In this document: one piece after another, positions 1,214 to 4,169 of the stretch | Layout: each line of letters begins with the position of its first letter | Position numbering within the stretch: the stretch's first letter is position 1 | Translations under genes and position numbers: made by a program | IMG/VR virus record: IMGVR_UViG_2541047428_000007 | Origin: a virus | Lineage: Duplodnaviria > Heunggongvirae > Uroviricota > Caudoviricetes | Strand: one strand, 5' to 3' | Length of the DNA stretch: 4,169 bases | Notes under the pieces: generated by a model | Told to the model about the DNA's origin: nothing | The model's database searches: none | Seen by the model: only the letters and a program-made list of their open reading frames with translations

Positions 1214-1527
1214 GTGGCTGGAAGAAGTGGCGCTGGGCTGAAATCCTGATACTCCGGCAGTGTGCGGGAACGATGAGAGTCGAAAGCATCGGTTATCTGA
1301 TTGGCCGTAGTGAGTCAGCCGTCAGGACGAAAGCGCGGGAACTGGGTATCAGCATGATGTTACGGGGTGATTATCACCAGTCAGCCAAATGTTCACAGCG
1401 TGATATTGAGCTGGCGTGGCAACTGCATCAGCGTGGTGTACCCCGACGGGAAATTGCCGAAAAGTTTGGGATGAAGTTGGGCGCAGTGAATAACTACGTT
1501 TATTTCGACAGGAGGGTTCAGGAGTGA
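1210..1527 (+). CDS. Small DNA-binding protein with two helix-turn-helix-like motifs
   Basis: GTG at 1210 overlaps the upstream stop (GTGA), suggesting translational coupling; an alternative start is ATG 1273. The track start at 1123 is a GTG deep inside the previous gene and is rejected. HTH-like segments [23 protein letters not shown] and [19 protein letters not shown]. Stop TGA 1525-1527. Confidence 0.6.
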
Positions 1528-1826
1528 GGGTGAGGGTTTATATCGCCGGTCCGATGACGGGATATGAAAATTTTAACCGCGAGGCATTTCACAAAACGGA
1601 AGAGGTGCTGAAACGGGAAGGGCATACCGTTTTAAACCCGGCAGTACTTCCGGACGGGCTGACTCAGCCACACTACATGGATATTTGCATGGCAATGCTC
1701 CGTTGCGTGGATGCGGTTTACATGCTGAAAGGCTGGCAGCAGTCGGCAGGTGCAGGGGCTGAGCTGGCACTGGAGGAGAAACCGGGCCATGCGGTGATTT
1801 TTCAGGAGGTGGGCAGTGAATATTGA
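1524..1826 (+). CDS. DUF4406-like protein (nucleoside 2-deoxyribosyltransferase-like fold)
   Basis: GTG 1524 overlaps the upstream stop (GTGA) and is preceded by GGAGG 1511-1515; alternative start GTG 1530. N-terminal motif VYIAGPMTG followed by ...GHTVLNPA..., which I recall as typical of about 100-aa DUF4406/NDT-like proteins common in phages. Stop TGA 1824-1826. Confidence 0.75.
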   Translation: MRVRVYIAGPMTGYENFNREAFHKTEEVLKREGHTVLNPAVLPDGLTQPHYMDICMAMLRCVDAVYMLKGWQQSAGAGAELALEEKPGHAVIFQEVGSEY

Positions 1827-2133
1827 CCCGGCGATAACGATTGATATGGCCCTGAACGCCGGCCTGGCACTTCTTGGTTATTTCTACATTATGTTCTGCA
1901 GCGGACGATGGCTGTCACTGTTGTTCATGAAAAAATGGAATAAACGCCGTAAGCAGGAGCAACGCCAGAAGGCAATGGATGCATTTTTCGAAGCCTTCGG
2001 AATTGACGGCATGGAACCAGGGGATCCAGCTCGCGCAATCAGCAGAGGGGGTGTAGTAATCCTTGTATATCGGAGTGAAGAGAAAAATGACGATCACAAA
2101 ACAACGTGTAGAAGAAATCATATCCCGCATTGA
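1816..2133 (+). CDS. Hypothetical small membrane protein (one N-terminal TM helix followed by a K/R-rich segment)
   Basis: GTG 1816 with GGAGG 1805-1809 (6-nt spacer) overlaps the end of the DUF4406 gene. Hydrophobic stretch ALNAGLALLGYFYIMFCSGRWLSLLF followed by KKWNKRRKQEQRQK (positive-inside). The 3' end overlaps the next gene by 47 nt if that gene starts at 2087. Weaker than its neighbours. Confidence 0.45.
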   Translation: MNIDPAITIDMALNAGLALLGYFYIMFCSGRWLSLLFMKKWNKRRKQEQRQKAMDAFFEAFGIDGMEPGDPARAISRGGVVILVYRSEEKNDDHKTTCRRNHIPH

Positions 2134-2404
2134 AATGTATGGACATGGTGCAGGGTATATCGCAGACGAGGTTAATGATCTGGCTATACTGGCGCTGAAT
2201 TTATCAAATATCGCGAACCTGAAGCGATACGAGCTTGATATGGGAGGTTGCGACTCGTGCGGTCAGGATTGTGGCGCTGATATGACTGAAGATCCTGATG
2301 GTGATTATGTCCTGTTTGATGACGTGGTTAAGTTGTTTGAATTTGATACAACCACTCAAAAGTTAGAAATCCCGGCAAAGGAGGCAGCCAGTGGGCAAGA
2401 TTGA
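2087..2404 (+). CDS. Hypothetical phage protein, acidic C-terminal half
   Basis: ATG 2087 with GGAG/GAAGAGA upstream; the ORF-track start at 2063 is TTG. Continuous frame to TGA 2402-2404. Acidic Cys-containing segment DMGGCDSCGQDCGADMTEDPDGDY. No family recognised. Confidence 0.6.
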   Translation: MTITKQRVEEIISRIEMYGHGAGYIADEVNDLAILALNLSNIANLKRYELDMGGCDSCGQDCGADMTEDPDGDYVLFDDVVKLFEFDTTTQKLEIPAKEAASGQD

Positions 2405-2828
2405 CTATCAGGCACTGCGTGAGGCAGCACAAAACTATCAATCGACGCTGGCGTGGTATCAGGCTACCCCGGACAGCCCAAATGCTGAACGGGATTGTGA
2501 TGCGGCTCTTGCTGCGTTTAAGCGTCACATCCGTCATCGGGAAGCGGATATTATCGCTGATTTGCTGGATGGACTGGAAGAAGCAAAATCACAACTCAAC
2601 GAGCAGCGTGAGTATTACGAAGGCGTTATCTCTGATGGGAGCAAGCGTATTGCTGAACTGGAAGCGCGGGAAGTTCAATTACCGACTCGCTACGACCTTC
2701 GATATGGACACCCGATAAATGCAGATGAGCGACATGTCATGATACCTAAAGAAAATGGCAGTTGGCTTTACCTGATTGACCTAGAACACGCATTACGCGT
2801 CGCTGGCATTCGCATCAAAGGAGAGTGA
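2391..2828 (+). CDS. Hypothetical phage protein (145 aa), predicted helical / coiled-coil middle region
   Basis: GTG 2391 preceded by AAGGAGG (2377-2383, 7-nt spacer); overlaps the upstream gene by 14 nt. Stop TGA 2826-2828. No family recognised with confidence. Confidence 0.7.
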   Translation: MGKIDYQALREAAQNYQSTLAWYQATPDSPNAERDCDAALAAFKRHIRHREADIIADLLDGLEEAKSQLNEQREYYEGVISDGSKRIAELEAREVQLPTRYDLRYGHPINADERHVMIPKENGSWLYLIDLEHALRVAGIRIKGE

Positions 2829-2829
2829 G

Positions 2830-3021
2830 ATGAACGGACAAATATCAATTGTTCGACCAGGAGCATGTGACGATCGCGAAATACGAATGATTATTCGTCT
2901 GGCGATGGGGAAAACAATAACTGCTCTCATTACTCCAGAAAATCTCGCATTAGCATTAACAGGAAAGTCAGACATGCCAGTAGAGCTAAAGCTGCGAAAT
3001 GTTGAGATTAAGGTGAAATAG
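2830..3021 (+). CDS. Hypothetical small protein (63 aa)
   Basis: ATG 2830 lies 1 nt after the upstream stop, with AAAGGAGAG at 2816-2824. Stop TAG 3019-3021. Fits the compact operon. Confidence 0.55.
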   Translation: MNGQISIVRPGACDDREIRMIIRLAMGKTITALITPENLALALTGKSDMPVELKLRNVEIKVK

Positions 3022-3023
3022 CT

Positions 3024-3581
3024 ATGACCACTATTACCAAAGATCGACTGCTGACAATCCAGCATTGGCGCGAAACATACGGACCGGGTAGCAACGTTGT
3101 GCTTCCAGCAGAAGAAGCGGAAGAGCTGGCACGGATTGCGCTGGCATCACTGGCAGCAGTATCGGATGAACGAGCAGCCTATGAATTATTTATGGAGAAG
3201 CGTTTCGGAGAATCTGTAGATCGCCGCAGAGCAAAAAATGGCGATAGAGATTACATGGCATGGGATATGGCGCTTGGCTGGATTATCTGGTGTCACCGCG
3301 CCGCCATGCTTCAGGCTGGAAACTTTCGGGAAAATAAGGGTTCGTCAACCAATAATTTTCGGATAATCTCGGAAACGTCAACCAACTCTCCGGCAATCCC
3401 TGATGAGGTGTTGTCCGCAATCCTGAAGGTCGCCAGGCTTCGTGCAGATTTCGATGCTTCTGAAGTGGACAGGCGAGGTATCGGTAGTTGTCTGGATGAG
3501 GCCGAGCAAGAACTTATCGTTACCATTAACGAATACGCCAGTCAGATCGCAGTAGAAGCGACACAGGGGGAGAACCAATGA
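3024..3581 (+). CDS. Hypothetical phage protein (185 aa)
   Basis: ATG 3024 lies 2 nt after the upstream stop, with AAGGTGA 3010-3016 as RBS. Stop TGA 3579-3581. Contains a short low-complexity S/T/N stretch (GSSTNNFRIISETSTNSP) encoded by an imperfect DNA repeat (CGTCAACCAA at 3343-3352 and 3376-3385). Confidence 0.7.
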   Translation: MTTITKDRLLTIQHWRETYGPGSNVVLPAEEAEELARIALASLAAVSDERAAYELFMEKRFGESVDRRRAKNGDRDYMAWDMALGWIIWCHRAAMLQAGNFRENKGSSTNNFRIISETSTNSPAIPDEVLSAILKVARLRADFDASEVDRRGIGSCLDEAEQELIVTINEYASQIAVEATQGENQ

Positions 3582-3863: not shown

Positions 3864-3881
3864 TGCTGCGGGTGCTTGAGG

Positions 3882-3917
3882 CTGTCTGCCTCGGGCATGC
3901 CACCGTAAGGCAGACAG
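3882..3917 (+). promoter_or_regulatory. Stable stem-loop in the hok mRNA leader (10-bp stem, 16-nt loop)
   Basis: CTGTCTGCCT (3882-3891) pairs perfectly with AGGCAGACAG (3908-3917). The loop contains the 8-bp palindrome GGCATGCC (3894-3901). No downstream U-tract, so not a typical intrinsic terminator; more consistent with the folded leaders known for hok-family mRNAs. Confidence 0.4.
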
Positions 3918-3929
3918 AGAAAAGCCCCA

Positions 3930-3995
3930 GTTAACATTACGCGTCCTGCAAGACGCTTAACATTAATCTGAGGCCCAATCTATGCTTCACAAACG
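3930..3995 (-). ncRNA. sok: Putative Sok-like antisense RNA covering the mok translation-initiation region (approximate bounds)
   Basis: By analogy with characterised hok/sok loci, Sok is transcribed antisense across the mok SD/start. A weak candidate promoter on the minus strand is -35 TTGCCT (complement of 4020-4025) and -10 TAACCT (complement of 3997-4002), 17-nt spacer, which would put the TSS near 3990. The -10 is poor and the ends are not determinable from sequence. Confidence 0.2.
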
Positions 3996-4169
3996 TAGGT
4001 TAGCCTCTTACGCGCCGAAAGGCAAGGAGAAGCAGGTTATGAAGCAGCAAAAGGCGATGTTAATCGCCCTGATCGTCATCTGTTTAACCGTCATAGTGAC
4101 GGCACTGGTAACGAGGAAAGACCTCTGCGAGGTACGAATCCGAACCGGCCAGACGGAGGTCGCTGTCTT
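3982..4169 (+). CDS. mok: Mok-like reading frame: in-frame 19-codon N-terminal extension of hok (3' end off-window)
   Basis: ATG 3982 preceded by GAGG (3970-3973) and in frame with hok ATG 4039 (57 nt apart). Extension MLHKRRLASYAPKGKEKQV. As I recall it, E. coli mokC is likewise an in-frame N-terminal extension of hokC. Confidence 0.45.
   Translation, partial: MLHKRRLASYAPKGKEKQVMKQQKAMLIALIVICLTVIVTALVTRKDLCEVRIRTGQTEVAV
4039..4169 (+). CDS. hok: Hok/Gef-family type I toxin (small membrane peptide), 3' end truncated by the window
   Basis: ATG 4039 preceded by AAGGAGA (4024-4030, 8-nt spacer). Translation MKQQKAMLIALIVICLTVIVTALVTRKDLCEVRIRTGQTEVAV matches the Hok/Gef signature (TM helix, then ...RKDLCEV.IRTGQTEVAV) and is essentially identical over the visible part to my recollection of E. 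coli HokD (RelF) and Gef. A full Hok is about 50 aa; 43 codons are in the window. Confidence 0.88.
   Translation, partial: MKQQKAMLIALIVICLTVIVTALVTRKDLCEVRIRTGQTEVAV

Follow-up and report, generated by a model that had tools for sequence, protein, structure and literature searches.

A DUF4406 Gene in a Rac-Like Prophage of Escherichia coli O157:H7 and Its Possible Role as a Nucleotide N-Glycosidase

Introduction

The gene considered here encodes a DUF4406 protein and lies in a 4,169-nucleotide (nt) stretch of Caudoviricetes DNA (IMG/VR record IMGVR_UViG_2541047428_000007), hereafter called the window; the characterized enzymes with which its product was compared include human DNPH1, the glycosidases MilB, BcmB, and BlsM, and the phage enzyme DmtZ. 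DNPH1, also named Rcl, is a 2'-deoxynucleoside 5'-phosphate N-hydrolase (PDB 8qhq and 2khz). Its core triad comprises Y24, D80, and E104, of which E104 makes a covalent ester with the sugar-phosphate and D80 protonates the leaving base, and the phosphate is held by S98 together with S128' of the partner subunit (PMC10603095). MilB, BcmB, and BlsM are N-glycosidases of cytidine 5'-monophosphate (CMP) and hydroxymethyl-CMP, with lengths of 150–185 amino acids (aa).

DmtZ, from Gordonia phage Ghobes and Arthrobacter phage Wayne, resembles the nucleoside 2-deoxyribosyltransferases (NDTs). Its substrate is the deoxyadenosine monophosphate produced by the pyrophosphohydrolase DutZ, which is encoded next to it or fused to it; besides hydrolyzing this nucleotide, DmtZ can hand deoxyribose 5-phosphate over to another base (PMC12884076). 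The comparison with DmtZ was based on its published description, according to which it has ~145 aa and the triad Tyr6/Asn77/Glu103, and belongs to phages with 2-aminoadenine DNA (PMC12884076). The triad Tyr excludes ribo-substrates, and a 5' pocket that has neither Asp nor Asn indicates phosphorylated substrates (PMC12884076). DmtZ is not a member of DUF4406, because its authors report no match to any Pfam model (PMC12884076). On the strength of the analogy, it is taken here as the closest experimentally characterized phage analogue of the family.

Our tentative proposal is that DUF4406 proteins act as (deoxy)nucleoside 5'-monophosphate N-glycosidases, which would work through a covalent Glu80 intermediate and edit or clean the nucleotide pool in phage DNA replication. 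This proposal, which stops a little short of being probable, was made because of the conserved Glu, Tyr, and Ser, the actinophage neighborhoods, and the precedents of DNPH1 and MilB, by analogy with DmtZ.

Family Membership, Distribution, and Selection

The gene has the following limits:

1524–1826, + strand: coding sequence of the DUF4406 protein (100 aa, the GTG start counted), with the TGA stop at 1824–1826

The initial annotation, made without database searches, had assigned the gene to DUF4406 from its VYIAGPMTG motif and its length of about 100 aa. Motif and length were verified, and the Pfam model PF14359 (DUF4406) matched the product with E = 2e-33; the score was 115.1 bits where the cut-off is 22, and the match spanned positions 2–90 of the 91 in the model. 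The only other Pfam match was to DUF1937, below threshold. PHROG 355, which carries the label "nucleoside 2-deoxyribosyltransferase," matched with E = 4e-43. For PF05014 there was no match to the window protein at E ≤ 0.1, and the NCBIfam and PADLOC scans of the protein returned no matches. Conservation was counted in 150 family representatives, and smaller denominators below refer to non-gap positions. All of the family-invariant residues (G9, F22, P43, G76, and E80) were kept in the window protein, as were the near-invariant Y6, N18, P39, Y51, and S74.

The same gene has been annotated by the Prokaryotic Genome Annotation Pipeline (PGAP) in strain SS52 as WP_001310212.1, and public contigs with the identical protein, at least 1000 of them, call it a "DUF4406 domain-containing protein." It was 100% identical in other O157:H7 genomes. 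Of the 5426 complete genomes of E. coli, 1115, about one fifth, had the gene at ≥80% nt identity, with up to four copies per genome, and an exhaustive phmmer search found 9087 cluster representatives (50% identity) at E ≤ 0.001. For 51 different alleles on prophage contigs of E. coli, the median pairwise ratio of nonsynonymous to synonymous substitution rates (dN/dS) was 0.077. The IMG/VR scan yielded close E. coli relatives only, and it was used for neighbor variation and dN/dS, not for distant context. Because of the family match, the wide distribution, and the low median dN/dS, this open reading frame (ORF) is a real and constrained protein-coding gene that was already annotated. It is an ordinary member of a known, uncharacterized phage family.

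Stand-alone DUF4406 proteins carried inconsistent labels across phage records, namely MazG-like pyrophosphatase, deoxycytidylate deaminase, hydrolase, CMP N-glycosidase, or nucleoside deoxyribosyltransferase. In those that were tested (e.g., locus L002, 3004–3372; L084, 2980–3354; L087, 2474–2854), Pfam gave only DUF4406, with or without PF05014.

Fold

The AlphaFold2 (AF2) model of the protein had a predicted local distance difference test score (pLDDT) of 91.2 and a predicted template modeling score (pTM) of 0.84. Four strands and four helices alternate in it, and it has the three-layer alpha/beta fold with a parallel sheet that is a feature of the NDT superfamily. A Foldseek search with this model found NDTs, DNPH1, MilB, and BcmB at template modeling (TM) scores of 0.70–0.79 on query length, with the NDTs on top. 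The closest structure was 1t1j of Pseudomonas aeruginosa, which belongs to DUF1937 (PF09152); it has 17% identity and is below the Pfam threshold, and, having no known function, it adds no mechanism to DUF4406.

Neither the protein by itself nor a shallow profile found anything relevant among the PDB sequences. A deep profile of 61 diverse members matched the Trypanosoma brucei nucleoside 2-deoxyribosyltransferase (TbPDT; PDB 2a0k) at E = 1.1e-4, and matched the CMP glycosidases BcmB, BlsM, and MilB more weakly. A distant homologue, gp28 of Arthrobacter phage Tweety19, was above both the DUF4406 and the PF05014 thresholds (29.2 bits for PF05014) and so bridges the two families. The profile matches, the AF2 and Foldseek matches, and this bridge together support the NDT-like fold that the initial annotation had named for the gene. 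Its family and fold assignments are thus correct, and they are already in RefSeq.

Active-Site Residues

The residues and motifs that bear on catalysis are listed with their positions in the window:

1536–1562, + strand: VYIAGPMTG, residues 5–13, strand beta1 and the Gly-rich loop, from the AF2 secondary structure
1539–1541, + strand: codon of Y6, on strand beta1, aligned to the triad Tyr (Y24 of human DNPH1; Tyr of TbPDT)
1686–1688, + strand: codon of C55, aligned to N53 of TbPDT, the Asp of BcmB and BlsM, and D80 of human DNPH1
1743–1763, + strand: S74-A-G76-A-G-A-E80, an S-x-G-x-x-x-E motif, which holds the predicted Ser for phosphate binding and the Glu nucleophile

In the alignments, the catalytic Glu of TbPDT, BcmB, BlsM, and DNPH1 (E104) corresponds to E80, which starts the helix after the [S/D]-x-G loop. 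S74 aligned to a Ser in DNPH1 (S98), BcmB, and BlsM, and to an Asp in the nucleoside transferase TbPDT. The motif was nearly invariant, with S74 and G76 each in 139 of 140 representatives and E80 in 137 of 139. At position 6, Tyr was found in 123 representatives and Phe in 19, and G9 was present in all 144 non-gap cases. The window protein has Tyr at the triad Tyr position, whereas MilB is said, in work of Sikowitz et al. in 2013, to have Phe there, tied to its preference for ribonucleotides. The assignments of Y6, E80, S74, G76, and C55 were concordant in four alignments (TbPDT, BcmB, BlsM, and human DNPH1). The hhalign comparison with the single DNPH1 sequence gave a sensible alignment at negligible probability, and it was counted only as one of these four.

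The third triad position is different. Where DNPH1 has D80, and where MilB, BcmB, and BlsM have an Asp, the DUF4406 protein has Cys55. Among the 150 representatives, this position was Cys in 101, Asp in 19, Thr and Ala in eight each, Gly in six, and Ser in three. The six sampled actinophage members had Asp in four cases, within a Y-[LM]-R-R-D-L motif, and Gly and Ala in one each. The Asp of the actinophages therefore supports position 55 as the triad site, with Cys as a change of the subfamily. The initial annotation had asked for the catalytic Glu and Asp of the NDT enzymes; the Glu nucleophile was found conserved together with the Tyr, but the Asp position is occupied by Cys. D53, the residue that first suggests itself on inspection, was also considered as the catalytic Asp and was rejected, since it is variable (Asp in 69 of 150) and all alignments indicate position 55.

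Other differences from DNPH1 concern the surroundings of the active site. The two proteins have ~20% identity and no significant sequence match. The shielding loop and the E55/H56 helical element of DNPH1 have no recognizable counterpart in the DUF4406 protein, and the C-terminal helical extension, from which S128' of the partner comes, is absent. In the AF2 model, the protein stops ~7 residues past strand beta4, so it lacks an extension that could complete the active site of a partner as residues 128'–133' do in DNPH1 and as the C-terminal extension of the NDTs also does.

Gene Neighborhoods in Actinophages

In phages of Actinobacteria, the DUF4406 gene was located in the replication and recombination module. 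In phage Milly (L085, 2548–3932), gp55 (DUF4406) is directly followed by gp56 (PF18909). In Mycobacterium phage Toto (L088, 2435–3706), the order is gp109 (DUF4406), gp110 (PF04447, a dATP/dGTP pyrophosphohydrolase), and gp111 (PF18909), and in Optimus (L087, 2474–3805) gp161 (DUF4406) is followed by gp163 (MazG/PRA-PH-like) and gp164 (PF18909-like). In BirksAndSocks, a MazG gene lies four genes from DUF4406. The adjacency to deoxynucleoside triphosphate (dNTP) pyrophosphohydrolases in actinophages points to nucleotide-pool metabolism. The initial annotation had named nucleotide pools and the degradation of immune signals as possible roles; of these, the former is better supported by this adjacency and the latter found no support.

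The arrangement of DmtZ with DutZ has a parallel in the mycobacteriophages, where DUF4406 stands beside DUF550, DUF5664, or MazG-like genes. Two viral proteins named for the PF18909 domain ("dATP/dGTP diphosphohydrolase N-terminal domain-containing") had a DUF4406-like fold, with TM scores of 0.83–0.87, which suggests from the models that they may be DUF4406 fusions. The association of DUF4406 with pyrophosphohydrolases is real but partial.

A cassette of DUF4406, a DUF550 or MazG-like gene, and DUF5664 (dATP/dGTP pyrophosphohydrolases) was seen repeatedly, in Toto, Optimus, and Milly, which are phages not known for 2-aminoadenine DNA. Optimus gp164 (L087, 3320–3805) carries the annotation "endolysin; inhibits RNA polymerase"; tblastn showed it to be similar (E = 8e-6) to the PF18909 proteins encoded by Milly and Toto, and judging by this similarity the endolysin label is probably wrong. 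Genes for DNA methyltransferases were found beside or near DUF4406 in several unrelated phages (Ayotoya gp67, L089, 2869–3582; Brujita gp55; loci L095–L098, ~2110–3246). Their proximity may be a matter of chance within accessory regions.

Proposed Activity

The activity, the preference for 5'-phosphorylated and 2'-deoxy substrates, and the biological role are what we infer for the DUF4406 protein. As an N-glycosidase, it would cut the N-glycosidic bond of a 2'-deoxynucleoside 5'-monophosphate (dNMP). Glu80, oriented by Tyr6, would attack C1' to give a covalent deoxyribose-5-phosphate ester, while the 5'-phosphate would be held by Ser74 and the Gly-rich loop behind beta1. The intermediate would then be freed by water or handed to another base. 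This chemistry would be that of DNPH1, MilB, and DmtZ. The gene would be expected to be co-transcribed with the phage replication genes from the early operon, and the role in the pool could be, for example, the irreversible destruction of an unwanted or non-canonical dNMP. In other phages, a neighboring dNTP pyrophosphohydrolase might supply such dNMPs.

Several points weigh against this proposal. A literature search found no activity measurement for any DUF4406 protein. Like about two thirds of the family, the window protein has Cys for the triad Asp, and the C-terminal extension that gives S128' to the neighboring active site in DNPH1 is missing. Ala84 and Leu87 of the family are Glu and Pro in the window allele. 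Six of the ten sampled distant phages had no pyrophosphohydrolase neighbor. No pyrophosphohydrolase gene was found in the window or in the 80 close E. coli loci by tblastn, a search of low sensitivity with actinophage seeds only, and a local phmmer search with pyrophosphohydrolase seeds found none among the 266 proteins compared. In Gammaproteobacteria, the position of the gene varied, being past the replication genes, past the lysis cassette, or by the integrase.

The O157 Allele

Two substitutions of the window allele fall within the helix behind the catalytic Glu and directly past its end:

1773–1775, + strand: A84E
1782–1784, + strand: L87P

Members of PF14359 likewise have ~95–100 aa and a phage or prophage setting, but the window allele differs from them by Glu at Ala84 and Pro at Leu87. 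The near-invariant Ala at position 84, four residues past the catalytic Glu, was present in 131 of 139 representatives and replaced by Glu in none, and position 87 was Leu in 84 of 139. A84 is a conserved rather than a defining feature of DUF4406. Among the 80 close loci, E84, P87, T25, and G78 were found in the O157 allele only (L004 and L005). These substitutions may reflect relaxed constraint in a defective prophage.

The window copy could accordingly be a decaying or inactive allele of such a prophage, which would be compatible with any of the other readings. We consider this rather doubtful, though a serious prospect. It agrees with the change of a near-invariant Ala to a residue never seen there in the family, with the other three unique residues, with a dN/dS of 0.4–0.7 against the nearest relatives (family median 0.077), and with three annotated pseudogenes in the host prophage (an exonuclease, RusA, and a DUF6645 gene). 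However, 278 genomes carry the same uninterrupted reading frame, and all catalytic positions are retained. The differences are few (7–13), and dN/dS is inflated between very close sequences. The AF2 model is also still confident, although AF2 is insensitive to point changes.

Other Explanations

An alternative is that the protein is a nucleoside 2'-deoxyribosyltransferase that swaps bases between deoxynucleosides for salvage. The label of PHROG 355 and many phage annotations say so, NDTs were the top Foldseek matches, and the family profile matched TbPDT. However, the window protein lacked a PF05014 match, the Asp that binds the 5'-OH in TbPDT is replaced by Ser74, as in nucleotide hydrolases, and the C-terminal part of the NDTs is missing. 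The actinophage neighbors, moreover, produce dNMPs rather than nucleosides. A transferase of this kind was therefore judged improbable.

The initial annotation had speculated that the enzyme might degrade nucleotide-derived immune signals. As an anti-defense protein, it would destroy or sequester such signals (cyclic ADP-ribose isomers or cyclic oligonucleotides) or detoxify host-defense nucleotides. Its fold is common to TIR and SLOG domains, and it behaves as an accessory gene. But literature and database searches gave no link between DUF4406 and defense, there was no PADLOC match, no functional literature on DUF4406 was found, and the family is not mentioned in the viral sponge survey. The motifs are those of NDT and DNPH1 enzymes and not of TIR or SLOG, and metabolism would explain more simply why house-cleaning pyrophosphohydrolases lie next to DUF4406. 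The idea of immune-signal degradation was thus not borne out, and we give an anti-defense function a similarly low probability. A more specific version would regard DUF4406 proteins as minimal NDT-fold "nucleotide sanitizers," a phage counter-defense that destroys toxic or signaling nucleotides (chain-terminating or deaminated dNMPs, or ADP-ribose-derived signals), with the Cys in place of Asp and the open active site as a proteobacterial adaptation to unusual substrates; this appears very unlikely.

Least probable of all is a non-catalytic nucleotide-binding protein or a DNA-directed glycosylase, whose open site without a C-terminal lid would bind a larger ligand: the change of the triad Asp to Cys, the absent extension, and the closest structure, 1t1j, which has no known function, are in line with it, but the near-invariant Glu nucleophile and the S-x-G motif argue for catalysis, and actinophage members retain Asp at position 55.

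Gene Setting in the Prophage

The window corresponded to the Rac-like lambdoid prophage by potC in E. coli O157:H7 (99% identity over 95–96% of the window), and at least 80% of it was covered in 278 complete genomes. In strain SS52, the gene order comprises the repressor RacR, a helix-turn-helix (HTH) gene, YdaT, a DnaT-like gene, P, and DUF1627, followed by the 105-aa HTH-like gene, DUF4406, DUF4752, a hypothetical gene, an Ea22-like gene, a 63-aa gene, DUF551, and hokD. Nin-type, lysis, and head genes lie beyond hokD. The DUF4406 gene is thus an accessory gene of the early operon of a lambdoid prophage, between the replication gene P and hokD, which agreed with the accessory-operon placement given in the initial annotation. 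The features around the gene are as follows:

1210–1527, + strand: upstream gene of 105 aa, with weak similarity to HTH / sigma-70 region 4; GTG at 1210; a PGAP coding sequence in SS52
1510–1515, + strand: ribosome-binding-like AGGAGG, 8 nt 5' of the GTG at 1524, read from the sequence
1519–1522, + strand: GGAG, which could serve an alternative GTG at 1530
1816–2133, + strand: DUF4752 gene, downstream (Pfam PF15944, E = 7.5e-39)

The start of the DUF4406 gene is ambiguous by two codons, because translation from another in-frame GTG, at 1530, would yield the beginning "MRVYIAGP" that is found in many homologues. The product of the upstream gene had Pfam matches below the cut-off and a match to PHROG 323, and this gene appears to be translationally coupled to the DUF4406 gene. 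The window contained at least ten genes on the same strand, with stops and starts that overlapped or abutted. Overlaps between consecutive genes were observed as GTGA at 1210–1213 and at 1524–1527, the latter joining the upstream stop to the DUF4406 start, as 11 nt at 1816–1826, where the 3' end of DUF4406 is shared with the next ORF, and as 14 nt at 2391–2404. As read from the sequence, these overlaps suggest translational coupling along the entire accessory operon. Promoter and terminator scans of the window found no excess over shuffled sequences.

Among 79 close loci, the upstream neighbor was DUF977 in 49 and the HTH-like gene of the window in 30, both of the DNA-binding type. The downstream genes belonged to at least nine unrelated types, so DUF4406 has no fixed partner; DUF4752 stood immediately downstream in 10 of 68 loci, and tblastn found a DUF4752 homologue in 7 of 80. 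In Enterobacter prophages, DUF4406 was located between the lysis cassette and the terminase gene, which follows it, and in a Vibrio prophage it adjoined the integrase. Because its positions vary, DUF4406 in Proteobacteria behaves as a free accessory module.

Three sequences contain a predicted fusion of DUF4406 and DUF4752 (P0008, 169 aa), which probably reflects a frameshift or a misassembly at the 11-nt overlap and not a genuine fusion. A scan of twenty longer family representatives for fusions showed no second Pfam domain in any of them. Milly gp55 (L085, 2548–3000) carried an N-terminal extension of ~150 residues on its DUF4406 domain, without a Pfam match, and several other long representatives had extensions without an assigned domain.

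At the end of the window, a hok/sok type I toxin–antitoxin locus was found at 3870–4169, with an Rfam sok match of 114.9 bits at 3870–4044 (+ strand). The hokD ORF (MKQQKAMLIALIVICLTVIV...) begins at 4039 and continues past the window end. A 185-aa ORF at 3024–3581 had no Pfam match at E ≤ 0.1, and the SS52 gene at the same position is annotated as DUF551. The window and SS52 differ around 3024–3581, the 95–96% coverage being in two pieces.

Implications for the DUF4406 Family

In most proteobacterial members of DUF4406, Cys replaces the usual catalytic Asp. DUF4406 is a large phage family, and the activity hypothesized for it is that of a dNMP N-glycosidase downstream of dNTP pyrophosphohydrolases. 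If the activity is true, it would correct the inconsistent labels of DUF4406 genes (MazG-like, dCMP deaminase, hydrolase, or deoxyribosyltransferase), and it would add a step to the management of the nucleotide pool by temperate phages.
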